From IMG/VR virus record IMGVR_UViG_3300026549_000070: a stretch of DNA of 64,000 bases; one strand, written 5' to 3'. Made by a program: the position numbers and the translations under genes. Of the stretch, positions 859-44,351 are shown piece by piece. The notes below the pieces were generated by a model. It searched no databases, was not told the origin of the DNA, and saw nothing but the letters and a program-made list of their open reading frames with translations. How positions within the stretch are numbered: position 1 is the first letter of the stretch; each line of letters begins with the position of its first letter. The stretch is from a virus (taxonomy: Duplodnaviria > Heunggongvirae > Uroviricota > Caudoviricetes).

Positions 859-3800
859 TTGATGAATACAGAAGAATTTTACAATGGCTCACCTTATGAA
901 GTGGGCACTATGGATAACCTTGCAGAAACAAAGGTAAGCTATAATAACCTTGTAAAAGTTGTCCACGATGCTGCAGGCAGAAAAGGTTTAACTCTTTCTG
1001 AGTTTCTTAATTTGCAAAAATCTTCAGAAGAGTCTTCTGAGCTTGTTACATACCTTGATGAAAAAGGGTACTCTGTTCGCTCAATGGGCGAGGACGCAAA
1101 AATCTTTAATAATCAGATAAACACTCAAGCCGCTTTACAAACAATTCAAAACTTCTATGATATGTATATCTCTCCAACACAAGGAGACGCTCAATATCGT
1201 TTAGGAGAAGTTACAGGTCGCGCACTCCCAGGAACTGTAAATAATCAAACTGACGATCAAGGTCGTTTATTTACAAGATCTTTATATAACACAGTACTTA
1301 AATATAAAATTTGGAAAGTTGACCGTCTTGTAGATACTGAAGAATATTATTCTGTTCTTTGGTTCCCACCTTTTAAGCCAAACAGCGTTAAAGCTACTTC
1401 TTGGAAAGGCGCATATGTTTCTGACAACAGTGAAACAATTTCTCTTTCAATGGGAGAATATCTTTCACAAGCAAAAGCAAAGCGACAAGAAGAACTTGAT
1501 GAACTTAATGCAAAGCTGATTGAAGCTGGTGAAGAAGTTACACAAACAGAAGCAGATGATACACGCCTCGTTAAAAATCCATCAGCAACAAATGATAGCG
1601 CAAAATATTATGATACATTTGACTTAAACAAGTTTCTTGCAGCTCGTTCTTCATTTACATACCGTGCGCCTGGCTTCAAAGCAATCAATGATAACATTAA
1701 TATGATTCAGTGGCTTTTTGAAGGCTGCACAGGAATTGTATCAACATATCTTACAGAATGGGATATTTCATTATATCTTCAAGAAGGCCTTATATCTGAT
1801 TTTAATGGCACAATGCCAAATTACATTTTATTGACTCATCGTATGGATAAAGACAATCCTTCAGGATATACTGATGAACGGGCAGCTTCTTACGGTGTAG
1901 TAAACTGTGCTGTTTCAAAACTTAACTCAGATTATCATAAAACTTGGTATATCAATGCTTATCCATATTCGTCTTGGCATACTGCGTATCCTGACCCTTG
2001 GAAGATGGCAGGCTGGCTTGATAAGATTGAACAGAATGGCCAAATCGTTTATGTGCCAAACTGGTTTAAGTTTGGTCGTGAAGGCGTAAGCAACTACCTT
2101 GCTGGTAAAGATCTCGGTTATAAACCACGCCGTGACTGTATTAGTTCACGCTTGCTTTATCAAGATTTTGAAAATGCTGCTCTTTCAGGTTACACTGATT
2201 GGTCTTTTGATAAAAAGATTTGGAAAGCTCTTTACACTGGCGATGATGACGGCTTTACAGATATTGACTTAGTTTATTTATCAACATCTTGTGGTATGTT
2301 CAAAAAAGCTGACTTAATTGACCAAGTTGAAATGATTCTTTATGGCGTTTCTGCTGACGGTGTTCCTTATGATGGTTCAGAAGTCATAGGCGGTGATAAC
2401 GGCTCTGGTAACGGCAATATTACAAATGATGAAGAATATTCTTATTCTTCTGCTGAAGGTTCTGGCGGAAATAAGTACTGTCCAGGAAGTGTTTTCAAAG
2501 GTGCATTAACATTCTTAAATATGTTCAACACAAAAGATAGTAAGAAGAATGCTTCAATGTCACAAGCAGAAAGCCGTTTGCAAAGTGATAGCGGCAACAC
2601 TTATGGAGTAATGCAAGATTCACTTGGTATTACAAAACAGGCATCTACAGGTCAGCCAGCCACTTTAACAGAAGATGGTTACATTCTTGGAACTAAAAAA
2701 GCATTTACTGAAAACTCTATTGGCGTAGGTGTTCCTCAGTACAACCCAACATTATATGGTGGACCTCACGGATACTACCGTTCACCTGAGTCATATCAAT
2801 CTTACTATGAAGAAAACTCTGTTTACTTAAGAAATGTACCTCGTATTGATAAATGTCCTAATAGCTTCAGTCACGACTCTTGGGCAGGAATTACTTGGCC
2901 ATCACTTCCAAACTGGCAAGATAACTACTACTATAAAGGAAATGAAAAATGGACTTCAAACGTTGGCGCAGTTGCAAATGGTGAAAAGCAGTCATTTGAA
3001 CAATCTTGGTCTGCTGGTTTTGCTCGATTAAAGCAAGGTGTTCACTCTTACTCAATGCAAACTGCATACATCAGACGCCGTCACGATACTATCATTGAAG
3101 GTCACTTACATAGAAAACATCGTTGGTGGGCTGGCTGGAGAGGCTGGTACTCTTGGCGTTATTTTGGCTACGACGTTGGTTGGGACCAGCGTGCAAGTAA
3201 CGGTGAGTTGCTTAATCGCTATGGCAACTATTGGTGGGAGTGGCGTAAATCAACATTGTACAGCAATCGTTGGTGGTGGAATTCACTTTGGAATAATTGG
3301 GCATATTATGATGCTTGGCTAAACTATTACAACTTTTATTTCTCTTGGCAATATAGCTGGGGCTGGAAATGCGTATTGCATCGTTATGTACCTTGCACTT
3401 GGGCTTGGCATTATGAATGGTGCTATGCTGACTTCAAAAGATATGTTATTCATAATGGCTTCCACGATTATAAGTGGAAGATTGCTATGGTTCAGCACTA
3501 TAATGCAACTCTTGACCCACGGTCAAATGATAAGTTCCGTAACAGATGGGCTGCAACATTCTCAAAGATGTTTGGCTATTCAACACCTTATGAGAGAGCG
3601 TATCTTTCAGCATCAACAGAAGATTATGAATTATTTATTGACGACTCAGGTAAGCAGCCAGGAACACTGTTTGAAAAATACGATGACAAATATAAACAAG
3701 TAATTTCTTCTTATATGACAGTTAAGGAACATAATGTAATGGACTATTTAGTTGACTGGGGACGAGGCGTCGGTGCCCATAATAAACTTATGTTCTTGAC

Positions 3801-6438
3801 TCGTGGTCCTAAAGATCAACCTGACTGTCTGTTCCGTTGTGAAGTCTATCATAATATGAAGCCAATTTGGTATTGGTGCGAACATTCTAAAAAATATTCA
3901 TCACATAAAACTAAGTATTGGTTTGAAAAACATTGTGGATGGAAGCACTATCTTTCTGTAAGAATTGATACAACAGACAGATTTTATGCTGGTCTTTACA
4001 AGCCTGCATTTACAAACTATGGTTCAGACTATGGTAAGATACCAAGATCAAAAGCAATTCAGGATTCAACTGTTCCTGTAAATGGACAGATAAGTTCAGC
4101 TGTTGCAAAACACAGTTTCTTTGGCTCAGGTTTAGGTAACAACTGTTCTGAAACTCGTAAGTCACCTTATGATCTTATGGAGAATATCAGTGGTCGTCGT
4201 TTTCCTTACTACAATGTTAACAAGGACTCTGACGAAATGCATAATTCATTCAGTGGCATTCGTGGCAAAGGTATTCTTGGTGACATCCCAGGTCTTGACT
4301 TTGTTGCTGACGATTCTAATATTGAAAAGTTTAGTGATAAAACTCGTATTACTAAAGGCGATCCACTTAATACAGCATTTGGACAGCTACACTTTCCGTT
4401 CTGGAAGATTGCATCATTCACTAAAGGTAATGTTGCTCTTAACGGTAATACATACCGTGTAGCAGGCGGACGTATGAATTATGTTGAAGGCAGAGCCCCT
4501 GATTGGTGGAATAAAATGATTCTTAATATGAGTTTAAGAAACACATTCTACCGTGGTGATATGTCAGGTCCAAAAATTGCAACATTCTCATTAAAGAATT
4601 TTGCTATTGATGTAACAAGCCTTGACATAGGTATGGGTAAGCAAACTATTGAAGCAAGAAAATGCAAAGTTAGAAACAATGGCAATGAGTTCCTTATTAC
4701 AGCTGACAACATTCGTTCATATACAACTTATCAGCAGTTAGGCGGTGACGGAAGACTTCACGATTATGTGGATAAGTGTACCTTAAAGAATGCTTGGGTT
4801 GGCGCAAAATATTACTTCACGTCATATGATATTGCTCCAAGATTTATGTATAATCTTGTATCAACTCAAAATGGATTCTTATCGGGCGCAAAAGACTTGC
4901 TCTGTGGACATATTAAAGATTCAAAAGGCCGCGATACTGGTAAGTACATACTGTCTTTTGACTATATTCGTGACATTATGGTAGGTACTAATCGTTCAGC
5001 AGCTCTTGTTTCGCCTCGTTCATACTTTCTTGCAAATCCTGAAGGAAAGTTTAAAGATGAAGAAACTGGCGAAATTTATAATTGTGAAGATATGTATGGT
5101 TACAATCAGTTCTTAGTTTGGGCAAGAGAGTGGTTTGACAATGACTCACTGACCAACTTTAATAAACATAAAGAACTTGAGAACGCATTCAACTTAAGAA
5201 TAAGCACTCTTGCAAATATGAACAGTAAACTTGAAGTTTATAAAGATCTTGATATTAAAACAATGTCATATAATACAATGATTGCAAGTTGGCGTGATAT
5301 GAATGCATTCATTGACTTAAAGTATGACGAAGGTATTGAACAGTTCTTCCTTGCTTATTTGAATGTTTTGTATGAGTCAAGAAGATATTTTATCAATAAA
5401 AGATGTAATAAACAAGACGGAACATTGTGGGCTTGTCGTCATCTTGAGAAAATGATTCCTCAAATGGTTGCTTCAGCTGTTTCATCTGGTGCAGGTGTGT
5501 ATCCTGCTGAGTTTAGCAAATCAACAGGAAAAGAAAATGTCGCATTCTACGAAGTTCAGAATACACTCGAAAAGAAATCTGAAACTTTAAAGAAGATTGC
5601 AAACGGAGAATCTGCTGCACTTGAACCTGATATGATTAAGACTGTTTATGTAAAAGTAAAATATGCAACTGAAGCTGATTATATCAAATGTCAGGAAAAA
5701 CTCAAATCTGGTGAGCTATCTCCAAATGAAGAAACCATTATTAAAGTTCGTCCTTGGAATTATATTAAGAAAAGAGATGGCTCATATAAGAATATAAATG
5801 CAGGTGACACAATCAATACAGCAAAAGGTGAAATGTGGAATAATGCGGGTTGGGCAATCAAATATGGTAAAGAAAAATATATCATCAAGCCTGTAAACGG
5901 ACCTTATGGAATATTCTCAAAAGAAGTAAAAAATGAGTTCAAAACTCGCAAAAAATTGGAGCAAAATGATACATTAAGTCTCACAATACACGAGTATGAT
6001 ATGTACATAAGTCCTGTTTATTCTGATAAAAACTCACTTAAACCATTTGACATCAACTGGGATAATCTTGCTGCAAGCGAGTCAGGAATCGTATTCAACT
6101 TATTCGGCGGTACAGCAGCAGATAAGATTAGAGAACTTACACAAGCTGGTGTTACAGATCCTCAAGCATTACTTTGTGGTGCTAAACAGAGCACAGATTA
6201 TTGGAGAATTCCTGTAAGTGGAAAACTTCCAAAAGCAGAAGGATATAAATCCGACATTACACTTGAATTCTGCAATCAAACAGAAAGTGGACTTATATCA
6301 ACTATGCCATCTAAAAATCCTGCAGCTTTATCTGGCGCAGCTGCTTATGCAATGTGGCCAATCATCGAGGAACAAACTGATGTTATTCCAAACTCAGGAG
6401 ATTTTGCAATTTCATTAAAAGACTTTGGTAAAAACTAA
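859..6438 (+). CDS. Very large (1859 aa) virion structural protein, a putative tail fibre, baseplate or host-recognition protein, containing an unusual Trp-rich segment
   Basis: Uninterrupted 5.6-kb ORF with a GAGG RBS. Residues ~735-890 are extremely W/Y-rich (HRWWAGWRGWYSWRYFGYDVGW...NRWWWNSLWNNWAYYDAW). No enzymatic motifs were recognised. Confidence 0.5.
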   Translation: MMNTEEFYNGSPYEVGTMDNLAETKVSYNNLVKVVHDAAGRKGLTLSEFLNLQKSSEESSELVTYLDEKGYSVRSMGEDAKIFNNQINTQAALQTIQNFYDMYISPTQGDAQYRLGEVTGRALPGTVNNQTDDQGRLFTRSLYNTVLKYKIWKVDRLVDTEEYYSVLWFPPFKPNSVKATSWKGAYVSDNSETISLSMGEYLSQAKAKRQEELDELNAKLIEAGEEVTQTEADDTRLVKNPSATNDSAKYYDTFDLNKFLAARSSFTYRAPGFKAINDNINMIQWLFEGCTGIVSTYLTEWDISLYLQEGLISDFNGTMPNYILLTHRMDKDNPSGYTDERAASYGVVNCAVSKLNSDYHKTWYINAYPYSSWHTAYPDPWKMAGWLDKIEQNGQIVYVPNWFKFGREGVSNYLAGKDLGYKPRRDCISSRLLYQDFENAALSGYTDWSFDKKIWKALYTGDDDGFTDIDLVYLSTSCGMFKKADLIDQVEMILYGVSADGVPYDGSEVIGGDNGSGNGNITNDEEYSYSSAEGSGGNKYCPGSVFKGALTFLNMFNTKDSKKNASMSQAESRLQSDSGNTYGVMQDSLGITKQASTGQPATLTEDGYILGTKKAFTENSIGVGVPQYNPTLYGGPHGYYRSPESYQSYYEENSVYLRNVPRIDKCPNSFSHDSWAGITWPSLPNWQDNYYYKGNEKWTSNVGAVANGEKQSFEQSWSAGFARLKQGVHSYSMQTAYIRRRHDTIIEGHLHRKHRWWAGWRGWYSWRYFGYDVGWDQRASNGELLNRYGNYWWEWRKSTLYSNRWWWNSLWNNWAYYDAWLNYYNFYFSWQYSWGWKCVLHRYVPCTWAWHYEWCYADFKRYVIHNGFHDYKWKIAMVQHYNATLDPRSNDKFRNRWAATFSKMFGYSTPYERAYLSASTEDYELFIDDSGKQPGTLFEKYDDKYKQVISSYMTVKEHNVMDYLVDWGRGVGAHNKLMFLTRGPKDQPDCLFRCEVYHNMKPIWYWCEHSKKYSSHKTKYWFEKHCGWKHYLSVRIDTTDRFYAGLYKPAFTNYGSDYGKIPRSKAIQDSTVPVNGQISSAVAKHSFFGSGLGNNCSETRKSPYDLMENISGRRFPYYNVNKDSDEMHNSFSGIRGKGILGDIPGLDFVADDSNIEKFSDKTRITKGDPLNTAFGQLHFPFWKIASFTKGNVALNGNTYRVAGGRMNYVEGRAPDWWNKMILNMSLRNTFYRGDMSGPKIATFSLKNFAIDVTSLDIGMGKQTIEARKCKVRNNGNEFLITADNIRSYTTYQQLGGDGRLHDYVDKCTLKNAWVGAKYYFTSYDIAPRFMYNLVSTQNGFLSGAKDLLCGHIKDSKGRDTGKYILSFDYIRDIMVGTNRSAALVSPRSYFLANPEGKFKDEETGEIYNCEDMYGYNQFLVWAREWFDNDSLTNFNKHKELENAFNLRISTLANMNSKLEVYKDLDIKTMSYNTMIASWRDMNAFIDLKYDEGIEQFFLAYLNVLYESRRYFINKRCNKQDGTLWACRHLEKMIPQMVASAVSSGAGVYPAEFSKSTGKENVAFYEVQNTLEKKSETLKKIANGESAALEPDMIKTVYVKVKYATEADYIKCQEKLKSGELSPNEETIIKVRPWNYIKKRDGSYKNINAGDTINTAKGEMWNNAGWAIKYGKEKYIIKPVNGPYGIFSKEVKNEFKTRKKLEQNDTLSLTIHEYDMYISPVYSDKNSLKPFDINWDNLAASESGIVFNLFGGTAADKIRELTQAGVTDPQALLCGAKQSTDYWRIPVSGKLPKAEGYKSDITLEFCNQTESGLISTMPSKNPAALSGAAAYAMWPIIEEQTDVIPNSGDFAISLKDFGKN

Positions 6439-7455: not shown

Positions 7456-7728
7456 ATGGAGGAACTGGGTATGATACAGACAAAATACTACAAGAGAACT
7501 CCTGACGCCACTGAAAGAAGGGGTTTTCTGACAAAGAATGAGAGTCTTGCTCTCGCAGCTGCAGATCAACTCGCCAAAAACATCAAGGTAAGCTATTACA
7601 ACGATAAGGGCACGATTCTTATGGTGGAAGCAGAAGTTGATGGAAATGATAATCTTAAGGCTATCAATGCGTTACTTGCTGACAATGGTTTCAGCACAGA
7701 TCTTGAAACAATGTTGCGGAAGGCTTAA
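7456..7728 (+). CDS. hypothetical protein (90 aa)
   Basis: ORF with RBS tggaggaactgggtatg. Confidence 0.45.
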   Translation: MEELGMIQTKYYKRTPDATERRGFLTKNESLALAAADQLAKNIKVSYYNDKGTILMVEAEVDGNDNLKAINALLADNGFSTDLETMLRKA

Positions 7729-8483
7729 TGAAAATTATCAACTGTAAGAACGAACGCGACATAAAGAAATGTCTCAGACAGAATCGTCCATATATGGCAA
7801 ACCTTATGGACTTTAATGATAACATAAAACCTCAGCTTTTTGAAGGAGCAGAGAAACTTCACTTTGTCTTAAGTGGTCCTCAAACAGAAACAATCGGTGA
7901 ACGCGCTTTTGCAAACTGTTGGGAACTTGAACGATTCGATGGACTTCCAAAGATCATTGGCCCTGCTGCATTTACTTTCTGTGAATCATTAAAAGACTTT
8001 AACTTTACAACAATAAACAACTTATATCCTGATGCATTTTCTTATTCAGGATTGCAACAAATTGACTTACCGCCGAACATTGAAAATATCCCACCTAGAT
8101 GTTTTCAAGCTTGTCTTAGACTGAGAAATCTTAATCTTAATAAAGTTGAAACAATTGAAGAAGAGGCGTTTCAATCATCTGGGATTAGAGTACTAGACAT
8201 TCCTGTGTCTTTAGCAACAATAGGAAAGAAAGCTTTTGAAGGCTGCATTTATCTTAGTGATATTGTTTGCGAAAGATTCTTGCCGCCTAAGCTTTCTGCA
8301 TCATCTTTTTATGGTTGTTCAATCAAGAATGTTTGGGTTTTCTCAGAAGCTCAACTTGAGTATTATTTGAAAGACCGTTATTGGTCGAAGTTTGATGGAA
8401 TCTTCAGAATTGGTACACCTAAGATTTTGAAACAAAGAATGGAAGACATTCGTAACAACAAGGATTCATTATGGCCTATTTGA
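7728..8483 (+). CDS. BspA-type leucine-rich-repeat protein (putative adhesin or tail accessory protein)
   Basis: Repeated IxxxAFxxCxxLxxIxLP units (e.g. LDIPVSLATIGKKAFEGCIYLSDIV). ATGA start overlaps the previous gene. Confidence 0.45.
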   Translation: MKIINCKNERDIKKCLRQNRPYMANLMDFNDNIKPQLFEGAEKLHFVLSGPQTETIGERAFANCWELERFDGLPKIIGPAAFTFCESLKDFNFTTINNLYPDAFSYSGLQQIDLPPNIENIPPRCFQACLRLRNLNLNKVETIEEEAFQSSGIRVLDIPVSLATIGKKAFEGCIYLSDIVCERFLPPKLSASSFYGCSIKNVWVFSEAQLEYYLKDRYWSKFDGIFRIGTPKILKQRMEDIRNNKDSLWPI

Positions 8484-17838: not shown

Positions 17839-18351
17839 TTGGAAAGGAGACAAATAATGTACGCACCAAAGATATATGTTACCGTGGGAATCTCGGGAGC
17901 GGGTAAGAGTCATTTTGCAAAAAGATATTGTTCTGCTTTTAACGCGGTTGAACTTAATCTTGACAATTTCCGTAAAAAGATAAGCGGAGACATCTCAAAT
18001 CAGAATGTTACTTTCGAAGCAATTAAGCTTCGTGACAAAGAATTGATTGCCCACTTGGCAGGCGGTCACAATGTAATGATTTCTGATACAAACTTGCACG
18101 CAAAAGGCATTAACGATATTGCGAAAAAGTTTCCTTACAATGATGTTGAAGTTTTCTTTATTACCGACTCAGAAAATGTTCAGCTTTGTAAAGACCGCAT
18201 TGCTGATGATCTTGCAAATAAAGTTGACCGCAGTAATGTACCCGATGAAGTTATTGACCATCAGCACGAAAACTATATGAAGATGATGGACGCAACTTTT
18301 GCTGAAAACGTCCACATTCATTTTGTTGATACAAACGGCAAAGTATCTTAA
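17839..18351 (+). CDS. polynucleotide 5'-kinase-like P-loop kinase (T4 Pnk kinase-domain homolog; stand-alone)
   Basis: P-loop GISGAGKS. An exact ISDTNL motif and the NLDNFRKKI region parallel T4 Pnk (GCPGSGKS, ISDTNL, NRDDYRQSI). Confidence 0.55.
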   Translation: MERRQIMYAPKIYVTVGISGAGKSHFAKRYCSAFNAVELNLDNFRKKISGDISNQNVTFEAIKLRDKELIAHLAGGHNVMISDTNLHAKGINDIAKKFPYNDVEVFFITDSENVQLCKDRIADDLANKVDRSNVPDEVIDHQHENYMKMMDATFAENVHIHFVDTNGKVS

Positions 18352-18379: not shown

Positions 18380-18709
18380 ATGAGTGAGAAAAAAGCTCCA
18401 GAAACTCCCGTTGATAAGTACAATAAACTTATTCGGGAAATAAAGCATCAAAAGAAGGTTTTAGAAACTGCTCAACGCAATGTTGAGAAGTCAACTAAAG
18501 CCTTAAATGATTTAATGAAAAAATTGTGGTTTTGTCCTGTCTGTAATAAGCCACAGCTTATCCCAAACAAAAAAGAAATAAAAGAAGTCCTTGAAAGCAA
18601 AATGAATGAAGACGGCACAGATTCTTTCTATAAATGTAGTTATGCTCAATGTTCAATATGTAATAGGTTTGTTCTTATTGGAAAGGACTTTATGGGCGAT
18701 GATGACTAA
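18380..18709 (+). CDS. zinc-ribbon protein (109 aa)
   Basis: CPVCNK...CSYAQCSICNR. Confidence 0.4.
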   Translation: MSEKKAPETPVDKYNKLIREIKHQKKVLETAQRNVEKSTKALNDLMKKLWFCPVCNKPQLIPNKKEIKEVLESKMNEDGTDSFYKCSYAQCSICNRFVLIGKDFMGDDD

Positions 18710-18727
18710 ATACTAGGAGTAGCGAAA

Positions 18728-21700
18728 GTGAACGAAACATTATTTAAGGCAATTCGTGAAGGCGGTAATATGTCTATAGCAGGTGAAGACGGAACCGAAG
18801 TAATGGCAACAAAACTTCAAGTTGCAAAAATGACACCTGAACAGTTTGAAGAATTCAAGACGTCGTTCTTTTCATTTTTGATGGAATTGAGCGATATGTA
18901 TAATGAAAGATTTGGAACTCCAATTTGGAAAGATGAATCTTTGATAACAAAAGGAAAGATTTACTCAGGCTCAACAAGAGCTTTCTTTCAAAAGCCTTTT
19001 GAAGAGTTTACAAAATATAAGAAATCAGTAGGTGACTTCGATATACAGTTGCCTGAAAGTACAATGGAACACTTCCCAAGTTTTGTTGAAGAACTTACAG
19101 GAAAAACTGTTGGCGACTTTACTTTTTACGGAAGTAGAACGAAGTCAATGCAGTCACATTCTTTGGTAACAGCAAATCCTGAAAAGTTTGCAGGCATTGG
19201 CGCAGAATATATGCAGTTTGATTGGGAATACACTCAATGGGATGATGAAGCAGGAAAGCCTGCTGAATGGAATGATGTATCACATTATTCTTCTTGGGAA
19301 GACATTGAGAATAACATTAAAGGTGCATTTGTAAAGATACTTCTTAAAGCAGCTGTTGCAGTAAAATCACAAAGAACTGATAAGCCATTTTACTCAATTA
19401 AGACAGGAAAGCCCGTTAAAACTCCTGCTGATGCAAAAGAATACTCATTCCACGTTGATAATGGCGTAACACGCTTACTTAAAGATGTAAATGATGGTTA
19501 TGCAAAACTTGACATTGGCGACAGAACATCATCACATAGTATGGACTTCTTGTTTGAAGTTCTTTTTGATAGAAAACCTGAAGCTGATGAAAAGCGCAAC
19601 CTTGTATCTTTTGTTCGTTTGATTAAGTTTATGAACAAAGAGTACGATGACGCTCTTTTAAGAAACATCTTTACAAAGTTTACAAAACTTCTTTTTGATG
19701 TTCACGAACAGCAGATATCTCGTGACCTTACAGAAGATCGTGAAGTTAAGCACGCAGCTGAAATGAAGTTTATTGAACTTTGTCCTGCAGTTGCTGATAT
19801 GAAAGATTATGCTGCAGATGCTGAAGAAGATTACTACACTTCTGAGTTCCGCAAGGAAGGCAACCGTTATGGACAAGCTGATAAGAGAGCTGCTCGTCTT
19901 GCAGCACAACAGGAAGGCATATCTTTTAATGGAAGCCATTTGAAGGAAGAGGTGGCTGCTGATGGAAAGACATTATATGTTTACTCTTCCTCAAAAGACC
20001 AAGACTTATTCAAATACTATTTTGGAAGAAATCTTAAGTTTGGTTTGAACGGCGGTTCTGCTTATGGTTTTGCAACATACGCAATTATGTCTGATCCTTT
20101 TAGTGGTGCATCTGATGTAGGCTATTCTGAAGCAGCTCGTGATAACCTTTATGGCACAAACTGCTTCGAGTTTGAAATTCCTACAGATAAAGTTTTCTTC
20201 TTTGAGTATGCTGACTATGTAAAGACATTAAGAGGAAAGAACTCAACACCTGCCAACTTTGTAAAGCAGCAGGTTGACTTTTTCAAACTTCCACTTAGTG
20301 ATGAACAGATTGCAAGTCTTACTCCTGAAGAAGGCGCTGAGTTTAGTTCAAAAGCGGCTCAGGCATTCTTCCGCTATATGAGCCGCATTTACTATCAGGA
20401 CAAACTTGGTGCTCTTATTACACCTTGTGCAGGTTTTGTTTACAAAGGAAGAAACGACGGCCGTACATATGTAGGCTGGGATGGTTATGCTCTTATACCA
20501 AGACGCTTTACAAATGATTTTGGAAAGACTTGGAAAGAAGTTGATAGAAACTCTCCTGAGTACAAAGAGTATGTTGAAAAAGCAAATGGTGAGCGTGAAG
20601 CAGCAGATGTGTTTGATGGACACAAAACTCCATTAAAAGAAGCAGTGTACCGCTTGTTTATGAAGTTTGGCTCAGGCGATGATACTGCAGACAAACTTGT
20701 AGATGGATTGTTTACTGACATTGTAATTCACGATGATAAGACAGTTGACTGTACATTCAAAAGCAACTTACCATACATTGACCAAGACAGACATTATCTT
20801 CGCTTGACAAATGACAATCATCTTATTCGTTCGCTTCACAAATTGGGATTTAAGTTTGGTAAGCTTAACGCAGGTATCAAGATTGGTAAAGAATCACTTG
20901 AACTTTATAAAGATGACTTGATTGAGTCTATTGACCCAAGCATTTGGCCTGATAGTTGTACAGGTGGAATTAAGATTGCAGGCGGTCGAATTGCAAAAGA
21001 TACTTTCCAAAAGATTCCAACCACAATTGGTGAACACTATGCTTATATTGTAAATTGTCAAATTGATGACGATGTACTTAAAGGATATGAACTTCACGGA
21101 AATCCTGACAAGCCAAACTGGACTACTGGTGAAGAAACAAAAGCTAAATTAGTTGCTGCTTATGGTGAGTTTGCAGAAAATTGTATCTTGCCTGAAAAGC
21201 CGTTACCAAAAGCAAAAAGACAGTTGAAGAATCCTGATGCTATTGCAAAAGCTGAAGCAAGAGCAAAAGAGAAAGCTGAAAAAGAAAAAGCGGACTGGGA
21301 AAGAGTTACAAAGAACTGGGACGATGACGTTGAAAAAGCAATGAAGTTTACTGAAGCAATGGCTGGTAAGTCTCATTTGCCACATTTGTTCAATTCAGGT
21401 TCTTCAACACAGATGAAACAGAAACAGTTTGATGAACTATTGAATTACATCCAAGAAAGCGGCAATGTTTTTGATGAAGAGCACTTCAATGTATCTGAAA
21501 AGATTGACGGTTCAACAACTTTATTTGGTGTTGATGAAAAAGGCGTCTTTGTTGAAAAGTTTGGTATGAAAGAAATCTACCGTCCTGTTGATTTGCAGCG
21601 AGAAGACCTTTCAAGAAAAGTACGCGCATTCCTTGAAATTGCAAATAACCCAGAACTTGTTGACTTTCTTGACGATACAAGAAAAGAGTACAATATGCAG

Positions 21701-22846
21701 TTCATTAAGGTTCAAATTGAAATGCTTTTGACTGGTGCTTCAAAACACGAAGACAAGTCATTAATGCAAATCGTACTTGTACCTTATAAGCGTGAAAAGT
21801 TTGCAGAAGAAGGCGGTGCTTTTGTTGTAAGAGTTATCGGTGATGATCTTCAGCCTCTTCCAGGACAGGAAGAATTGCTTTCTGCAATTTCTTCAATTCT
21901 TACAACACCAAAGTTTATTGTAAAGCCAATTTCTGATACAGATCTTGACTTTGCTCCAATCGACTTAAACGAATACATTGCTGAAGTTCTTCCTACATTA
22001 AATGTAAAAGACAGAAGCGAAAGAAAAGCTGCTTATGAAGCTGCTCAAGAGAAGTTGCAAACACTTTTAACATCACATTTCCCAGAAGGAAAGTATGGTG
22101 AATTTTATGAAGGTCTTGTTGTTACTTGCAACAATGGATTCACTTTCAAGATGACTTCTCCACAGTTTAAGGAATGGATGGCAAAACATAACGAAAGAAA
22201 GCCTGTAACATTAAGTCCTGATGATCCTTACGGATTGGTTATGAAAGATTACGGTGAAAAGAAAATACTTCTTAATCACATTGGCCCAGGCACTGAACTC
22301 GTTGGTTTATTGTTTGGACATTTTGCTCCGTTTACAGGACCTAAAGGTCACGGCAGAATGATCACTGCTTTTAGAGAAAAGGGTTGTAACAAGTTCTTAA
22401 TTGGTATCCCAAGAAGTGGAAAGTCTTTTGATGATGACAGAGAAATGTACACAACAGAGCAAAGAGCTGAAATATGTGATGCATATTTGAAGCAAGAAGG
22501 ACTTGAAGGCAAAGCAGTTATACTGAAAACAGGAATGCCCGCCATTACAGTCAAAGGACTTGTTTGGGAAGCATATAATATGTTTGGACCAAAGATTCGT
22601 CCTGTTTACATTGTGGGTCCTGACCGTGCTGATTTGTTCTCAAAGAACAAAGATTTTGATACTGACCCAACAACAACATTCCCAGAAAAGATGGTTCTTA
22701 CTGATAGAGGTGAAGGAGCAGTTTCAGGTACAAAAGTTCGTGAGTTGATACGAAAAGGTGATGTTGATGGAATTGCTGAAATGACGGGCTACTCCAAACA
22801 AATTGCACAAGAACTTGTTGACTTACGAGAAGACAATTTGATGTAA
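18728..22846 (+). CDS. 1372-aa multidomain enzyme. It carries an ATP-dependent (RNA or DNA) ligase-like nucleotidyltransferase domain and a C-terminal HxGH cytidylyltransferase-like nucleotidyltransferase domain. The N-terminal and middle domains are unassigned; the middle may be ART-like.
   Basis: Motif I SEKIDGSTTLFG with motif IV/V-like EGLVVTCNNGFTFK about 200 aa downstream. C-terminal LLFGHFAPFTGPKGHGRMI matches the GxFxPxHxGH signature of NMNAT, PPAT and TagD-type enzymes. Residues ~420-500 carry YVYSSSKD...CFEFEI, reminiscent of the STS and ExE motifs of ADP-ribosyltransferases; this last point is weak. Confidence 0.45.
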   Translation: MNETLFKAIREGGNMSIAGEDGTEVMATKLQVAKMTPEQFEEFKTSFFSFLMELSDMYNERFGTPIWKDESLITKGKIYSGSTRAFFQKPFEEFTKYKKSVGDFDIQLPESTMEHFPSFVEELTGKTVGDFTFYGSRTKSMQSHSLVTANPEKFAGIGAEYMQFDWEYTQWDDEAGKPAEWNDVSHYSSWEDIENNIKGAFVKILLKAAVAVKSQRTDKPFYSIKTGKPVKTPADAKEYSFHVDNGVTRLLKDVNDGYAKLDIGDRTSSHSMDFLFEVLFDRKPEADEKRNLVSFVRLIKFMNKEYDDALLRNIFTKFTKLLFDVHEQQISRDLTEDREVKHAAEMKFIELCPAVADMKDYAADAEEDYYTSEFRKEGNRYGQADKRAARLAAQQEGISFNGSHLKEEVAADGKTLYVYSSSKDQDLFKYYFGRNLKFGLNGGSAYGFATYAIMSDPFSGASDVGYSEAARDNLYGTNCFEFEIPTDKVFFFEYADYVKTLRGKNSTPANFVKQQVDFFKLPLSDEQIASLTPEEGAEFSSKAAQAFFRYMSRIYYQDKLGALITPCAGFVYKGRNDGRTYVGWDGYALIPRRFTNDFGKTWKEVDRNSPEYKEYVEKANGEREAADVFDGHKTPLKEAVYRLFMKFGSGDDTADKLVDGLFTDIVIHDDKTVDCTFKSNLPYIDQDRHYLRLTNDNHLIRSLHKLGFKFGKLNAGIKIGKESLELYKDDLIESIDPSIWPDSCTGGIKIAGGRIAKDTFQKIPTTIGEHYAYIVNCQIDDDVLKGYELHGNPDKPNWTTGEETKAKLVAAYGEFAENCILPEKPLPKAKRQLKNPDAIAKAEARAKEKAEKEKADWERVTKNWDDDVEKAMKFTEAMAGKSHLPHLFNSGSSTQMKQKQFDELLNYIQESGNVFDEEHFNVSEKIDGSTTLFGVDEKGVFVEKFGMKEIYRPVDLQREDLSRKVRAFLEIANNPELVDFLDDTRKEYNMQFIKVQIEMLLTGASKHEDKSLMQIVLVPYKREKFAEEGGAFVVRVIGDDLQPLPGQEELLSAISSILTTPKFIVKPISDTDLDFAPIDLNEYIAEVLPTLNVKDRSERKAAYEAAQEKLQTLLTSHFPEGKYGEFYEGLVVTCNNGFTFKMTSPQFKEWMAKHNERKPVTLSPDDPYGLVMKDYGEKKILLNHIGPGTELVGLLFGHFAPFTGPKGHGRMITAFREKGCNKFLIGIPRSGKSFDDDREMYTTEQRAEICDAYLKQEGLEGKAVILKTGMPAITVKGLVWEAYNMFGPKIRPVYIVGPDRADLFSKNKDFDTDPTTTFPEKMVLTDRGEGAVSGTKVRELIRKGDVDGIAEMTGYSKQIAQELVDLREDNLM

Positions 22847-22915: not shown

Positions 22916-23617
22916 ATGAGAAAGATAACGATTTTACCACAAACAACTAAAGATCCTTTACAGCTTATAGGGATAACATCCGCTGTATGTTATAATTCAG
23001 ACACTAGTGATAAAGAAAAGAACATAAAACGCGCATTAGATTGCATACACTCAGGACACGGCAGAGTATTAGAATGGCCGAATGTTGAAGTTATAGTTGA
23101 AGGATTTTCTGCAAAGATGATGAGAGAAGCTATGCGACATATTGTTGGTACAAGTGTTTTGCAAGCATCAACTCGTTACATTGATTATGAAAAAGGATTT
23201 GACGTTATCACCCCACCTGCTATTGCAAACAACAATGATGCAATGGAAGTTTGGTGTAAAGCTATAAGTGACATCAAAATGGCTATGGGTGCATTGAAAG
23301 CTTTGGGCGTTCCTAAAGAAGACTACACTAACTTACTTCCGCTCGCTTATCAGTCAAAAATGATTTGGAAAGTTAACTTAAGAGCTTTAACTCATTTTAT
23401 GAACACAAGAACCTGTTCTCGCGCCTATTGGGAAATCCGTGAGTTTTCGAATATGCTGAAGAAAGCTCTTATGGAATACTCACCTGAATGGGAAATCATT
23501 TGTAAAGAACTTTTCGTTCCTAAGTGTGATGCTGTAGGATACTGTACAGAAGCAAAATGCTGCGGAAGACACAAAACAAAGTCGGAGGTTATTGGTGAAG
23601 ATGTCAAACAAGATTGA
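22916..23617 (+). CDS. thyX: flavin-dependent thymidylate synthase ThyX-like protein (variant motif RHI instead of RHR)
   Basis: HGRVLEWPNVEVIVEGFSAKMMREAMRHIVGTSVLQASTRY aligns to the ThyX core HxSVLEH...RHRxxxxxxxSxRY. NLRALTHFMNTRTCSRAYWEIREF matches the ThyX C-terminal motif. Confidence 0.65.
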   Translation: MRKITILPQTTKDPLQLIGITSAVCYNSDTSDKEKNIKRALDCIHSGHGRVLEWPNVEVIVEGFSAKMMREAMRHIVGTSVLQASTRYIDYEKGFDVITPPAIANNNDAMEVWCKAISDIKMAMGALKALGVPKEDYTNLLPLAYQSKMIWKVNLRALTHFMNTRTCSRAYWEIREFSNMLKKALMEYSPEWEIICKELFVPKCDAVGYCTEAKCCGRHKTKSEVIGEDVKQD

Positions 23618-23987
23618 TGATAAAGATGAATGGGAAGAAGAAGACACCATTCTTGATGAATACCAAAGACAAAAAGAATTAGAAGAAGCTTCTGTTAATA
23701 AGTTTCTCACAAGAGAAGACTTTGCTGATATGATAGCACAACAGACTGGTTCTGGTGTTGGTGATCCTTTCCAAAGGATGGCTTACACAAATGACTACAT
23801 TGCAAAAGCATTGGAAAGAAGCCCTAATGGTTGGATGGTTACTTCTGTAAATCAAATGATGAACAATGACTTAAGCATTCACGGCTTTCAAATAGCACCG
23901 CCAGGCCCTGAAGCAGAAGTAAACATAAAAGTTTCAGATCCTCAACTTATAGCAACATTGCATCACGCAATGCAAGGATATTGTTAA
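23592..23987 (+). CDS. hypothetical acidic protein (131 aa)
   Basis: ORF overlapping the thyX end. Confidence 0.4.
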   Translation: MVKMSNKIDDKDEWEEEDTILDEYQRQKELEEASVNKFLTREDFADMIAQQTGSGVGDPFQRMAYTNDYIAKALERSPNGWMVTSVNQMMNNDLSIHGFQIAPPGPEAEVNIKVSDPQLIATLHHAMQGYC

Positions 23988-24709
23988 TGAATTATATTCA
24001 GCTTAATGACCATTCAAGATTTGATGATGAAGAATGGGAAGTTGCACACAAACTTGGTTTTCAGAATGTAACGCCTTTTTATAAAAAGCATCTTATACAA
24101 AGAAAGTTTAAGATTGACAAAGGCGACTTTATTATGGGTGAAATACCCGTAATGTTGAACGCAATGAAACAGCTCGGAATTGAGTATCATTATAATGACT
24201 ATCCTGAGAGTTTGCAAAAGTACTTACATCGTAAAGTATGGACTTCTACAATGAAAGAAGTTCGTAATCTTATGTATGACAGTAAAGATGGTACACTTGA
24301 TTGGTTCATTAAGCCGAAAGACAAATTGAAACGCTTCACAGGATTTGTTTGCTCAATAATTGATGATTTGCAATTTGTAAATGGCGCAGGAAATCAAACA
24401 AAGCTTTGGTGCAGCGAGCCTGTTATATTTGTAAGTGAGTATCGTTGTCCTGTAATAAATGGCAAAGTAATGGGAATGTATGCAGCTCCTGGGAAAGATG
24501 GGACACTTCCTGATATGAAAGTTGTTGAACAGATGGCGAAAGACTTCGTTGATGCGCCGTCTGCTTATGCACTAGATGTTGGCGTTTTGCATACAGGAGA
24601 GACTGCTTTAATTGAAGTCAATGACGGATTTTCATTAGGCAGATATGGAATCCCAGTTGACATATACACACAATTATTGCAAACAAGATGGAGTGAATTA
24701 TGTTCATAA
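23981..24709 (+). CDS. ATP-grasp family ligase
   Basis: FIKPKDKLKRFTGFV (ATP-binding Lys region), SEPVIFVSEYRCPVINGKV, and ALDVGVLHTGETALIEVNDG (ATP-grasp Mg/ATP loop). Confidence 0.5.
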   Translation: MLMNYIQLNDHSRFDDEEWEVAHKLGFQNVTPFYKKHLIQRKFKIDKGDFIMGEIPVMLNAMKQLGIEYHYNDYPESLQKYLHRKVWTSTMKEVRNLMYDSKDGTLDWFIKPKDKLKRFTGFVCSIIDDLQFVNGAGNQTKLWCSEPVIFVSEYRCPVINGKVMGMYAAPGKDGTLPDMKVVEQMAKDFVDAPSAYALDVGVLHTGETALIEVNDGFSLGRYGIPVDIYTQLLQTRWSELCS

Positions 24710-26269: not shown

Positions 26270-26488
26270 ATGTTGAATCCGAATGAAATCCCAAAAGCGT
26301 GGGAAAACTTTAAGCAGCTTGAAAGCGGCGTTGCAAAATATCCAACTCTTATTCGTTTCCGTCTTATGGACTTAGTTTACTTTGGAGCAGTTGATAACAA
26401 AGGCAAATATTGGATAAGACGGGCACCAATATCAATAAAAGATCTTACAGGCTGTTCAGCAGCAAAAATTAAGGAGTTGCAAAAATGA
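26270..26488 (+). CDS. hypothetical protein (72 aa)
   Basis: Plus-strand ORF with an AGGAG RBS 17 nt upstream of the ATG (ggaggagtgttaatatacaattatg). Confidence 0.35.
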   Translation: MLNPNEIPKAWENFKQLESGVAKYPTLIRFRLMDLVYFGAVDNKGKYWIRRAPISIKDLTGCSAAKIKELQK

Positions 26489-27183
26489 TTCAGAACTTGG
26501 TATTTTTCAGAAATCACAAAAGAGATAATAATGTATGTTGGGATAACTGTCACGAGTTTGATGACATAACGGATGTTGAAGTTTGGACTCATCACAACGA
26601 AAATGATGATGTTTATGACTTTACAGATGAAGCCGCAAGAGTTTCAAAATTGATTGACGACTTTCCTGAAGCAAACATTATTGGAAGAGTTGACAGTGAT
26701 AAAGGCTTTGGTACAAACATCATTACAATAAATCTTCGTCAGGCAAAAGCTTTCCTTGGAGTTACTGAATCATTGAAGCAGCTTTCAAAATGTACACGCC
26801 TTAAAGTTTGTTGCGTTATTGAAAAGAACGGACGAATCGTTTCCACAGGACTCAACGGCACTCCTTCAGGTTTCAAAAACTGTAGTGAAGTATTTACTCC
26901 TATGGACCGTCTTAAGAAAGATTACAGTACAAGACACCACGAGTTTTCAGAAGCTTATGAAGTTCACGCAGAAATGAATGCTGTTCTCGAACTTGGTAAG
27001 AACAGCTCAATGGACAACTATGATGACTTGACCTTGTACTGTTCAACTTGTCCTTGCCCAGGCTGCGCTAAAATGATTGCACAGGCTGGTATCAAATATG
27101 TGTTCTATCACAATGAATATGATCGTTTACCTGAAGGTGCAAAGCATCTTAAAGAGTTCGGCATTTATGTATTCAAATGTTAG
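26485..27183 (+). CDS. dCMP deaminase (cytidine/deoxycytidylate deaminase family)
   Basis: Zinc-binding motifs VHAEMNAV and TLYCSTCPCPGCAKMI (HAE...PCxxC). Confidence 0.75.
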   Translation: MIQNLVFFRNHKRDNNVCWDNCHEFDDITDVEVWTHHNENDDVYDFTDEAARVSKLIDDFPEANIIGRVDSDKGFGTNIITINLRQAKAFLGVTESLKQLSKCTRLKVCCVIEKNGRIVSTGLNGTPSGFKNCSEVFTPMDRLKKDYSTRHHEFSEAYEVHAEMNAVLELGKNSSMDNYDDLTLYCSTCPCPGCAKMIAQAGIKYVFYHNEYDRLPEGAKHLKEFGIYVFKC

Positions 27184-32551: not shown

Positions 32552-33382
32552 ATGAGAAAATTTACAGTTGAAGAACCGATTGAGAAAAGTCGTAACAATG
32601 ATGATATCGTTGCAGGATCTTTTCTTTACCCACTTTACAACAAAATTATTAGAAAGGACTTTGTTACCACAGGCACTAATGCTTCACAAACTGCAGGACA
32701 GGAAGCTTATGTTGAGATACTTGCGAAGCAAGTTCAACTTGACCCTTATGCTCCTTACATTTATCTTGACAAAAACTTTCAAACACCAAAGAAGTATGTA
32801 AAATCTGAACTTGACTGGTATAAGTCAATGGACTTAAGTATCATTGGTCACGAAGGAATTGAAAGCAACCCTACTTGGCAGTCGTGTTGTACAAAAGACG
32901 AGAAGAAAGAAATCAACAGTAATTATGGTTGGTGTGTGTTCAGTGAAGAAAATGGCTCACAGTATGACAACTGTCTTGAAGTATTGAAAAAAGACAAGAC
33001 AACAAGAAACGCTATCATTGTGTATAACCGCCCAGAAATCTACAAAGATTACAAGCGCGATGGAATGCACGATATGATATGTACAATGCATTCCCACTTC
33101 TTTATCAGAAACAACAAACTTTATATGATTCACAATATGAGAAGTAACGACATTCGTTATGGCTTCATTTGTTCGGATCTCGCTTGGAATTGTTTCGTTT
33201 ATCAGAATATGTATGAAGACTTGAAATCAACATATCCTGACCTTGAAGTAGGAACAATTATTTGGACAAGTGACTCAATGCATCTTTACTCAAGACACTT
33301 TGATGATCTTAAAAACTTTTTTGAGTCTGAGCGAGAATTCAGAAACTCTATGATAAATCCTTCAGGAGGAGAATACTACTAA
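32552..33382 (+). CDS. ThyA-family pyrimidine C5-modifying enzyme, related to thymidylate synthase and dNMP hydroxymethylases; substrate uncertain, possibly dCMP-specific
   Basis: QYDNCLEVLKKDKTTRNAIIVYNRPEIY...MHDMICTMHSHFFI aligns to the ThyA DQL..VI..LK.NP.SRR.I..AWNP.DL...ALPPCH..CQFYV block; the catalytic Cys is retained. NMRSNDIRYGFICSDLAW aligns to QRSxDxxLGxPFNIASY, and an Asp may replace the Asn177 equivalent. Confidence 0.6.
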   Translation: MRKFTVEEPIEKSRNNDDIVAGSFLYPLYNKIIRKDFVTTGTNASQTAGQEAYVEILAKQVQLDPYAPYIYLDKNFQTPKKYVKSELDWYKSMDLSIIGHEGIESNPTWQSCCTKDEKKEINSNYGWCVFSEENGSQYDNCLEVLKKDKTTRNAIIVYNRPEIYKDYKRDGMHDMICTMHSHFFIRNNKLYMIHNMRSNDIRYGFICSDLAWNCFVYQNMYEDLKSTYPDLEVGTIIWTSDSMHLYSRHFDDLKNFFESEREFRNSMINPSGGEYY

Positions 33383-38527: not shown

Positions 38528-38741
38528 AGTATAACATCTTTTGTCCTAAGTCAATCATATCATCAGAAACAACATCGCCAATTTGAACTTTTCCAAAAAT
38601 GCGATTCATTTCTTCCCCGCATTCACATTTTGGCGGTATGGGTAGTTCTCCTACATTAAACTTCTTTACTAAGGTCTTTTGGCACTTCGGACATTGAAAC
38701 ATTGCTTTCGTCATAAATTGATTCTCCATAAATGGAAACAA
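38523..38741 (-). CDS. zinc-ribbon protein (72 aa)
   Basis: CPKCQK...CECGEE. Confidence 0.4.
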   Translation of the reverse strand: MFPFMENQFMTKAMFQCPKCQKTLVKKFNVGELPIPPKCECGEEMNRIFGKVQIGDVVSDDMIDLGQKMLYS

Positions 38742-39198
38742 GTGTTTCCTTTGTTATTATATTATCAAAAGTAAAGATATCTTTCTTAATAAGATTGTAA
38801 GGCAACTTTTCCAACTCCTTTTTATGAATTGAAAAACCTTTATGATATAATTGTGACATTGATTCATCCCACTTAAAGATATACGCTCTTTTATTACCTC
38901 TACCGCAGTCAACACCTAAGATCACATAACACAAGACATTTTTTGCGTGTGAATATGATGCCAAATAGTCATTTTGCCACTCTCTTATATTTTTGAAATT
39001 AAATGCTGACATCTGCTTTAATACCTTAGCTTCCCAGCATACAAAATGAAGTTCATCATTTACTTTACGCATCCCAATCCCATCAAAACACCTTATAGAT
39101 GATTTTGCGCCATATTGAAATCCTGATTCATCTGGTATTTTATAGCCGTCAACTAATGAATGGACTACAATAGTACAAAATCTAGCTTCATTCCACAT
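38656..39198 (-). CDS. hypothetical protein (180 aa), possibly nuclease-like
   Basis: ORF only; no firm motif. Confidence 0.35.
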   Translation of the reverse strand: MWNEARFCTIVVHSLVDGYKIPDESGFQYGAKSSIRCFDGIGMRKVNDELHFVCWEAKVLKQMSAFNFKNIREWQNDYLASYSHAKNVLCYVILGVDCGRGNKRAYIFKWDESMSQLYHKGFSIHKKELEKLPYNLIKKDIFTFDNIITKETLVSIYGESIYDESNVSMSEVPKDLSKEV

Positions 39199-44334: not shown

Positions 44335-44351
44335 TTATAAATACGAGAATT

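Follow-up and report, generated by a model that had tools for sequence, protein, structure and literature searches.

The gene under study occupies positions 18728..22846 on the + strand of the window, the whole 64,000-nt stretch of phage DNA that was analysed. As originally predicted, down to the exact coordinates, it encodes 1372 aa plus a stop codon with no interrupting stops; the reverse strand opposite these codons carries stops throughout. Two observations favour the GTG start: an AGGAG box, the ribosome-binding site at about 18714-18718, precedes it by 8 nt, and the first 14 residues are conserved, with E11-G12-G13-N14 invariant (24-25 homologs). Full-length homologs show 65-99% identity. 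All of the strings quoted in the original prediction were located, namely SEKIDGSTTLFG at residues 923-934, YEGLVVT at 1127-1133, GHFAPFTGPKGHGRMI at 1197-1212, VSGTKVRELIRKGD at 1332-1345, YVYSSSKD at 417-424 and FEFEI at 480-484.

Two genes upstream, here as at two homologous loci (L003 and L015), lies an AAA_33, Pnk-like P-loop kinase gene (17839..18351, +; PF13671, E 8e-14; phrog_505, polynucleotide kinase). Its product has 170 aa, consists of AAA_33 only, with no HAD 3'-phosphatase domain attached, and is probably the 5'-kinase partner of the large protein. Between the two genes stands a 109-aa zinc-ribbon/coiled-coil ORF (18380..18709, +), which is syntenic in close relatives only, so that no conserved small partner gene emerges. 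Hence the earlier placement of the gene between the Pnk-kinase gene and thyX stands insofar as ThyX is nearby, but not on the kinase side, where this ORF intervenes. ThyX, dCMP deaminase, dUTPase and DnaB/DnaC form a DNA-precursor and replication neighbourhood here and at L009, L012 and L015. The window also holds 9 tRNA genes, and the phage encodes a separate true Rnl1 homolog. A beta-CASP RNase gene lies near the homolog P0011, and the His_Phos_1 gene found near P0005 has no counterpart at the equivalent position of the window.

Searching Pfam, PHROG and the PDB directly with the query sequence yielded no more than phrog_19290, a family without assigned function, and a match to PF01467 below threshold, and PDB profile searches with domains A, B and C (defined below) gave no matches. 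AlphaFold models (pLDDT 92.9 and 89.1) were matched structurally to RNA ligases and NMN adenylyltransferases; residues 1-1165 were taken for the modelling of A and B, and the A-C-D homologs were anchored on C.

Domain A (residues 1-375; 18728..19852, +) is a Pol-beta-superfamily, Pol X-like nucleotidyltransferase with the motifs E11-G-G-N14, G81-S82, G102-D103-x-D105, Q163-x-D165-x-E167 and K198-G...K203. The pattern hG[GS]...DxD with a third carboxylate on the adjacent strand is present, and G81-S82, D103-x-D105 and D165/E167 are each conserved in 24/24 sequences. In the model, the order of strands and helices fits a Pol-beta-superfamily nucleotidyltransferase, and the fold matches solved members of the superfamily, the best being family-X DNA polymerases over 148-179 aligned residues. 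Given that the 8-kDa/HhH DNA-binding domain of Pol X is not evident and that the activity is only predicted, we file domain A as Pol X-like rather than as a family-X member. The RlaP profile PF10127 matched neither the query nor 9 A-domain homologs at E values up to 10. Alone among the four domains, A is found in cultured phages, those of the Campylobacter CP220-like and Vibrio Va1-like groups (50,697 deposited phage genomes); there it is annotated as hypothetical, and the neighbouring genes give no functional clue. Of the two N-terminal domains previously left unassigned, the first is thus a polymerase-like enzyme, while the second, domain B, is still without a recognisable relative. A disordered linker (residues 376-406; 19853..19945, +; pLDDT <50 for 376-387 and 396-406) separates the two, and the same boundary is visible in permuted homologs.

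Domain B (residues 407-835; 19946..21232, +) is a conserved module of unknown fold that is never found without a ligase-type domain. It contains [YW]-[ST]-S-S-K at 419-423, Y446-G-x-[AG]-x-Y451, R471, Y475-G476 and E481, and further on D577-G578, F-D-G-x-K-T at 629-634, IHDDKTxD at 667-674, N680-x-P, D685 and H689. The proposed resemblance of B to ADP-ribosyltransferase motifs is not supported. The R-S-E or H-Y-E triad does not occur in its canonical order: no conserved R or H precedes S421-S422, R471 comes after them, and in the supposed ExE only E481 is conserved, E483 occurring in 11/37 sequences. No ART or macro similarity was seen in B. An identity with KptA/Tpt1, considered separately, is not supported by any similarity. 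When named relatives were sought for B and D, only unnamed metagenomic proteins came up. We infer that B assists the enzyme domains, either in processing ends or in binding the substrate. No 3'-end phosphoesterase of the kind that heal-and-seal systems (Pnkp/Rnl, Pnkp-Hen1, Trl1) possess was identified alongside the ligase and the kinase two genes upstream, and B is only a candidate for that role. A long K/E-rich helix (residues 836-879; 21233..21364, +; 836-878 in the model) joins B to C.

Domain C (residues 880-1157; 21365..22198, +) is an RNA-ligase-type adenylyltransferase without an OB domain. Motifs I (K925-I-D-G), III (E998), IIIa (Y1020), IV (E1128-G1129) and V (K1141) occur in order; K925-I-D927-G928 is invariant in 9 sequences, and K925, D927, G928, E998, Y1020, E1128, G1129 and K1141 are at least 90% conserved among 71. 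The modelled adenylyltransferase fold matches solved RNA ligases, which in structure comparison score above DNA ligases. Motifs and fold together bear out the earlier call of an ATP-dependent ligase. After motif V, the model has only one helix (residues 1145-1156) before D begins, and the C-terminal OB domain is absent, a lack that sets RNA ligases apart from DNA ligases and capping enzymes. The query gave no hit to Pfam RNA_ligase (PF09414) or RNA_lig_T4_1, and its homolog P0092 reached 20.5 bits against RNA_ligase, where the cut-off is 27. Falling below these cut-offs, domain C therefore represents a new, divergent family within the ligase/covalent nucleotidyltransferase superfamily, one whose RNA ligases may possibly be useful as reagents. 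In P0045, P0048, P0049, P0071 and P0075, C is fused to an extra region of about 550 aa, unrelated to A, B, C, D or DUF6267; the Pfam family DUF6267 is itself likely another ligase-like domain.

The substrate could also be DNA. By analogy with bacterial LigD (POL-PE-LIG) or with the ASFV Pol X and ligase, A might fill short gaps or add (ribo)nucleotides to DNA ends, C seal nicks with a 3'-ribonucleotide, the kinase heal 5'-OH ends and B trim ends, as a "ribo-patch" for breaks and gaps that would protect a possibly base-modified phage genome from nicking or restriction. We regard this scheme, and these assignments within it, as unlikely, if far from negligible. Family-X DNA polymerases do top the structural matches of A, duplex nicks are the substrate of Rnl2/Rnl5-type ligases, the DNA-precursor and replication neighbourhoods (here, L009, L012, L015) would suit such a role, and tRNA is already served by the separate Rnl1. 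However, RNA ligases are better matches to C than DNA ligases are, C has no OB domain such as DNA ligases carry, the Pol X 8-kDa/HhH domain is not seen, and this scheme, too, leaves domain D without a role.

Domain D (residues 1170-1372; 22235..22843, +) is an NMNAT-like HIGH-fold nucleotidyltransferase with the motifs G1197-H-F-A-P-F-T-G-P-K-G-H1208, G-P-D-R at 1297-1300 and S1333-G-T-K-V-R1338. The earlier HxGH call is confirmed, with the correction that the query has a variant of the motif with a two-residue insertion (T1203-G-P-K-G-H1208). The canonical HKGH is kept in distant D homologs (G-H-K-G-H in P0018), the C-terminal ISxTxxR motif is present, and G1207, H1208, S1333, T1335 and R1338 are invariant in the alignment. 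Against PF01467, the query's D scores 13.6 bits (gathering cut-off 21), and the homologs P0054, P0076, P0057 and P0065 pass with 22-25 bits. The fold matches 2qjo, 1m8k (target-normalised TM-score 0.63), 4yp7 and 8aii at E about 4e-5, NMN/NaMN adenylyltransferases being the closest; the best PDB sequence-profile match is an FAD synthetase, the RibF FMN adenylyltransferase (E 0.002), not an NMNAT. HIGH nucleotidyltransferases transfer an NMP to a phosphate monoester.

These folds raise the question of NAD+/ADP-ribose metabolism or counter-defence, the second of the original suggestions, in which D would restore NAD+ lost to host NADase defences and the other domains would act not on polynucleotides but on signals made of nucleotides or derived from ADP-ribose. 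A precedent exists in phage enzymes that reconstitute NAD and have HIGH nucleotidyltransferase domains (PMC9503650), and PARG-like and YAcAr/SLOG genes occur near two other homologous loci. Nevertheless, no Nampt/NadV, Nudix or PRPP-type partner was seen adjoining the module, B has no ART or macro similarity, and the top sequence-profile match of D is the FAD synthetase. Moreover, D is fused to a ligase domain or a polymerase-like nucleotidyltransferase in 48/67 sampled D-containing proteins, which makes little sense for an enzyme of free metabolites. We consider this reading quite improbable.

The KxDG and HxGH matches are not fortuitous, given that their residues are conserved in homologs and that RNA ligases and NMN adenylyltransferases are what the models match. 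That the protein is a structural or virion component with chance motifs and no catalysis, the case named at the outset as refuting the prediction, is scarcely credible. Nothing was found in its favour, the only relevant points being that the query itself falls below Pfam thresholds and that 6 kb upstream there is a head-protease-like gene, whereas the catalytic residues of three enzyme folds are all conserved in distant homologs and confident models match enzymes. Effectively, this possibility is already refuted. Judged by its sequence, the 1372-aa protein carries three separate predicted nucleotidyl-transfer active sites, with catalytic residues intact, and a fourth conserved module. On the whole, the original interpretation is borne out for the ligase and HxGH domains and not for an ADP-ribosyltransferase in B.

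Domains A, C and D form a conserved, evolutionarily coupled triad, fused in permuted orders or encoded in adjacent genes, in about 160 metagenomic phage proteins. A domain could be assigned in 158 homologs, whose architectures include ACD (16), ABCD (8), DA (7), DC (5), DCB (4), DCAB (3), BCD (3) and others. The fused domains occur in at least five orders, and in six independent contigs they are split into neighbouring genes: A + BCD (L015), DA + BC (L012), D-x-A + C-ext (L014), B + CD (L009), A-D-A'-C (L017) and, at L011, C + a small A-like nucleotidyltransferase + a HIGH nucleotidyltransferase. The A-C-D pathway occurs in uncultured phages alone, most of them large; in the 50,697 deposited phage genomes, searched at the nucleotide level and in translation, B, C and D were not detected, and neither the whole gene, C+D nor the stand-alone ligase P0092 had a match there. 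As comparative evidence for a shared pathway, this recurrence in fused and split form is about as strong as such evidence gets. No annotation that we found names the pathway, and we found no literature description of a fusion of ligase, HIGH and Pol-beta nucleotidyltransferases or of DUF6267, though the 2016 RNA-repair survey by Burroughs and Aravind may mention it. Since the three enzyme domains recur together, fused or neighbouring, in many uncultured phages, they look like an undescribed machine for mending or modifying ends.

If RNA ends are modified rather than repaired, particular RNAs of the phage or the host might be tailed, capped or circularised by the three nucleotidyltransferases, for regulation or protection from exonucleases, with A adding 3' nucleotides, D capping a 5'-phosphate or triphosphate (NAD-like or App) and C circularising or joining. 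HIGH chemistry is what 5'-P capping or the addition of NMN to pppA-RNA needs, and D is obligatorily coupled to polynucleotide enzymes; against this, we know of no HIGH nucleotidyltransferase that acts on a polynucleotide. Both the proposal and these roles are very unlikely in our estimate.

We put about even trust in the reading that we prefer, a multifunctional fill-and-seal enzyme for broken nucleic-acid ends, RNA being the more likely substrate, that works with the nearby Pnk-like kinase. The kinase would phosphorylate 5'-OH ends, and domain A, acting like RlaP or a Pol X enzyme, would extend the 3'-OH end by the nucleotide(s) that it lacks. Domain C would adenylylate itself on K925 with ATP, pass the AMP to the 5'-phosphate and then seal the nick in the manner of Rnl2/Rnl5-type ligases, with B as an accessory for end processing or substrate binding. 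Domain D would join the NMP of an NTP to a phosphate monoester; most likely it would make NAD+ from NMN and ATP, feeding an NAD-dependent clean-up of 2'-phosphate ends, and less likely it would itself adenylylate the terminal phosphate of an RNA. During the phage's life cycle, the enzyme would serve to reverse host nuclease attack on tRNA or other RNA during infection by a tRNA-rich jumbo phage. It is doubtful, if conceivable, that D works directly on polynucleotide terminal phosphates in a machine of three nucleotidyltransferases in which B is a new fold with a new end-processing activity; 5'-P or ppp ends might then be adenylylated or receive an NAD-type cap, or 2'/3'-phosphate ends might be activated.

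By repairing RNA that nucleases have damaged, phages mount a major counter-defence, for which the known parts are ligase, kinase, phosphoesterase, RlaP/CCA nucleotidyltransferase and KptA; to our knowledge, neither a HIGH-fold nucleotidyltransferase nor a part like domain B is on this list. Should D make NAD+ on site, the sealing of ends would be physically linked to their NAD-dependent clean-up. Direct action of D on RNA ends would represent new enzymology, that of the first HIGH-fold enzyme on nucleic-acid ends, and would add a branch so far unseen to RNA/DNA repair or RNA modification in phages.

Among known systems, archaeal NMNAT, NadM, NadD and the phage NadM/NadR share with D the Rossmann-like HIGH fold and the GxFxPxT..GH and SxTxxR motifs, with a TM-score of up to 0.64 to the M. 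thermoautotrophicum NMNAT. Unlike them, D has the insertion in HxGH, is closest in sequence profile to RibF, and has a ligase or Pol-beta nucleotidyltransferase as its fusion partner, never Nudix or a ribosylnicotinamide kinase. LigD, the ASFV Pol X and ligase, and eukaryotic PNKP-Pol beta/mu-Lig3/4 likewise unite in one system a polymerase that fills gaps or extends ends, a ligase that seals nicks and a kinase, and LigD also permutes its domain order among homologs; however, its polymerase has the archaeo-eukaryotic primase fold and its ligase an OB domain, where the present protein has a Pol-beta fold and an RNA-ligase type, no detectable PE-like domain and an additional HIGH nucleotidyltransferase. 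In contrast to fungal and plant Trl1 (ligase-kinase-CPDase) with Tpt1, the polypeptide itself contains neither a kinase nor a 2H CPDase, and B is unlike KptA/Tpt1. Compared with tRNA repair by T4 Pnkp and Rnl1/Rnl2, the kinase lacks the HAD 3'-phosphatase domain, C lacks the C-terminal domains of the T4 ligases and lies below Pfam thresholds, and the phage has its Rnl1 homolog besides. For jumbo phages, the association of RNA ligases with a Pol-beta nucleotidyltransferase (RlaP), kinases and NAD-dependent end clean-up is established (PMC7824862, PMC9503650), and damaged RNA 3' ends are extended by RlaP by 1-2 nt (PMC12776372). The RlaP (PF10127) and RNA ligase modules of bacteria and jumbo phages share with the present protein a Pol-beta-superfamily nucleotidyltransferase, template-independent or template-dependent, whose gene is coupled to an RNA ligase, often with a kinase (PMC7824862; PMC12776372), and the proposed logic of restoring lost 3' nucleotides before ligation. 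They differ in that domain A does not match PF10127 and is structurally nearest to family-X polymerases, and in that the parts are here fused in one polypeptide, to which the HIGH nucleotidyltransferase and domain B, both foreign to the RlaP systems described so far, are added. The A-C-D(-B) protein is an extension of the known ligase plus Pol-beta-nucleotidyltransferase repair systems.

The large gene occupies 18728-22846 (+), exactly where the original prediction placed it, and comprises 1372 codons with no competing frame. AGGAG lies upstream of its GTG start, and given that the first 14 residues are kept among homologs, we conclude that this start is correct. A DNA-level search of deposited phage genomes gave no match to the gene; a 91%-identical homolog is found on a 292-kb metagenomic contig, where the order of kinase, 109-aa ORF, large gene and ThyX is the same as in the window. 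Hence, the source of the window is a jumbo phage. The window itself (37% GC) has phage content, namely a helicase, a head-protease-like gene, ThyX (22916-23617), dCMP deaminase (26485-27183), a ThyA-like gene (32552-33382) and DnaC/DnaB; ThyX, the deaminase and the ThyA-like gene are grouped and possibly form a modified-pyrimidine or dTTP-supply block.

An AAA_33/Pnk-like kinase gene (17839-18351) lies two genes upstream of the large gene. The ORF between them (18380-18709, +) encodes a 109-aa coiled-coil and zinc-ribbon (CPVC...CSIC) protein that is kept only in close relatives (contig L003 and probably locus L015). Two genes downstream of ThyX is an R2K-clade ATP-grasp protein (23981-24709, +; PF18299, E 3e-35), whose family is also present in the syntenic contig L003. 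Elsewhere, an ORF of 1859 aa (859-6438, +) has no PHROG match and lies near a BspA-type leucine-rich-repeat protein (7728-8483; PF13306, E 3e-55), while the genes for a RecU-like resolvase (38656-39198, -; PF03838, sub-threshold) and a DUF7487 protein (39188-40396, -) are on the minus strand inside a block that is otherwise plus-strand.

Comparison by BLAST with the initial set of 18 homologs divides the protein into four blocks, A (residues 1-372), B (405-860), C (875-1157) and D (1170-1372), whose order is shuffled among proteins: D-C-A-B (P0011, P0013), D-x-A (P0014-17), B-C-D (P0009, P0010), B-C (P0012) and A-C-D (P0018). When 1.84 billion representatives were searched with a HMMER profile, 213 relatives emerged, and architectures could be assigned by domain HMMs for 158. 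Fused forms among these are ACD (16), ABCD (8), DA (7), DC (5), DCB (4), DCAB (3) and BCD (3), with DAC, AC, BC, DB and CD seen once each; stand-alone forms are C (60), B (29) and D (18), stand-alone A being under-sampled because the profile used for sampling consisted of B+C+D. The triad of A, C and D also recruits additional enzymatic modules, as in P0120 (2078 aa), where it is joined by a second NTP_transf_2 nucleotidyltransferase, an Amidoligase_2 domain and DUF6934.

Residues 9-349 are covered by PHROG 19290, which has no assigned function. Within A, E11-G-G-N14, G81-S82, K98, G102-D103-x-D105, Q163-x-D165-x-E167 and K198/K203 are kept in 24/24 sequences, and the predicted order of elements is helix, GS, helix, strand (DxD), helix and three strands (D/E). 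This motif pattern and element order are those of Pol-beta-superfamily nucleotidyltransferases. A did not fall within the Pfam RlaP family when tested. Campylobacter CP220-like and Vibrio Va1-like phages encode stand-alone A, labelled 'hypothetical protein'.

For C, the original prediction of a ligase domain is borne out. K925, D927, G928, G934, E998, Y1020, G1124, E1128, G1129, V1131 and K1141 are at least 90% conserved among 71 sequences, and correspond in order to ligase motifs I, III, IIIa, IV and V. The AlphaFold model of residues 861-1372 (pLDDT 92.9) matches T4 Rnl2, Naegleria RNA ligase, T4 Rnl1 and Trl1-LIG in Foldseek (E 7e-6 to 1e-4); it places a single helix between motif V and the start of D, so C lacks an OB domain. 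Pfam gives no RNA-ligase match for C in the query, and the homolog P0092 scores 20.5 against PF09414, below the cut-off of 27. C thus represents a new and divergent family of RNA-ligase type.

The HxGH nucleotidyltransferase call for D likewise holds. Its motif, G1197-H-F-A-P-F-T-G-P-K-G-H1208, is GxFxPxTxGH plus a two-residue insertion, and the canonical HKGH is present in distant homologs; G1207, H1208, G-x-D-R (1297-1300) and S1333-x-T-x-x-R1338 are invariant in the alignment. The query's D scores below the PF01467 cut-off (13.6 versus 21), and several homologs score above it. Foldseek matches D to an archaeal NMNAT (target-normalised TM-score ~0.63), NadM and NadD, and the PDB sequence-profile search ranks the FMN-adenylyltransferase module of RibF first (E 0.002); a search for named relatives found none. 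The fold and catalytic motifs of D are established. Such an enzyme could serve free-metabolite NAD salvage, but D is fused to A or C in 48 of the 67 D-containing proteins of the sample, and this tie to polynucleotide enzymes makes salvage less likely.

B is conserved in about 49 proteins and modelled with pLDDT mostly >90, and searches for its structural or sequence relatives gave no match. It had been read as ART-like; this fails the motif test, since a conserved R or H before S421-S422-K423 is absent, R471 comes after it, and E483 is found in 11/37 sequences only. Alignment of B with E. coli KptA by hhalign gives E 0.59. Its many conserved polar residues (D577, T634, K637, D669, D674, N680, D685, H689, K718) suggest that B may be catalytic. 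B is always accompanied by a domain of ligase type, which is C or Pfam DUF6267 (PF19782), the latter forming the N-terminal ~330 aa of P0026, P0030, P0032, P0035, P0040, P0041 and P0069. DUF6267, a 'hypothetical protein' in T4-like cyanophages such as Synechococcus phages S-CAM9 and S-PRM1, has KxDG, EGFVV and K-L-V motifs of its own and a weak hhalign link to C motifs IV-V; in all likelihood, this is a ligase-like adenylyltransferase family that has escaped recognition.

Where A, C and D are unfused, their genes are adjacent. In L015, a 403-aa A protein is encoded just ahead of a B-C-D gene, and the kinase and ThyX genes are arranged as in the window; L012 has D-A then B-C, L014 D-x-A then C plus an extra region, and L009 B then C-D. 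L017, a 266-kb NCBI metagenome-assembled contig, carries A, D, A' and C as four genes in a row. In L011, a C gene precedes a 292-aa nucleotidyltransferase and a HIGH nucleotidyltransferase with canonical GRFQPVHLGH; the 292-aa protein has the EGGN/GS/GDID/QxDL/KG..K motifs of A and aligns globally to it (hhalign E 4.6e-5). It has relatives, at 28-32% identity, in unannotated Prevotella Lak megaphages (for example at 534660-535352 in MK250021.1). Fusion, permutation and fission across such distant sequences argue strongly for a common pathway of A, C and D, to which B and the other appended regions are accessories. The D-C-A-B homolog P0011 has a beta-CASP/RNase J-like metallo-beta-lactamase gene (L006, 3204-4592, -) 1.4 kb upstream.

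RNA repair in phages and bacteria is known to pair a Pol-beta-fold nucleotidyltransferase with an RNA ligase and a polynucleotide kinase. Given this precedent and the kinase gene nearby, we favour the large protein as a fill-and-seal end-repair enzyme, for which the substrate (RNA or DNA) and the roles of D and B are inferred. The kinase would act first, A would then extend the end, and C would seal it through K925-AMP; most simply, D would make NAD+ for NAD-dependent 2'-phosphate removal. RlaP restores 1-2 lost 3' nucleotides ahead of ligation (PMC12776372). RNA ligases, RlaP, kinases and phosphoesterases are common in jumbo phages, and one wing of RNA repair is NAD+-dependent, via KptA or sirtuins (PMC7824862; PMC9503650). 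On two unrelated contigs, the split module is preceded at a distance of a few kb by a PARG-like gene (PF10021; L012, 2241-3059) and a weak YAcAr/SLOG gene (L014, 93-467), respectively, both NAD/ADP-ribose-linked and a loose fit with this role of D.

The window has nine tRNA genes (Ser, Glu x3, Gln, Asn, Thr, Tyr, Met; 44009-62959), most of them grouped at 58.8-63 kb, with a NUMOD3 (homing-endonuclease-like) ORF directly past the cluster (63100-63909). Several observations speak against a simple tRNA-repair role and make LigD-like or ASFV-like 'ribo-patch' DNA repair the main rival. Adjoining tRNA genes is a 411-aa T4 Rnl1-type RNA ligase (54298-55533, +), which at 35.3 bits exceeds the PF09511 cut-off of 28.3; besides C, the phage thus possesses another ligase, of the classical tRNA-repair kind. 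Furthermore, a search for a phosphoesterase found none, A is most like DNA polymerases of family X, and the module is repeatedly placed among dNTP-metabolism genes, with ThyX, dUTPase, dCMP deaminase, HD nucleotidase and nucleoside deoxyribosyltransferase also flanking it in L009, L012 and L015.

Taken together, our results demonstrate the domain identities, their intact active sites and the coupling of A, C and D; a structural protein is excluded. In the searched literature, which did not cover a 2016 survey of RNA-repair systems, we found no account in which a HIGH nucleotidyltransferase is linked with an RNA ligase and a Pol-beta nucleotidyltransferase, and none of domain B or DUF6267; an earlier in-silico mention in that survey is possible. 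The finding includes a domain for which no structural relative could be detected, and it joins the known repair systems of ligase and Pol-beta nucleotidyltransferase, adding two new components to them.
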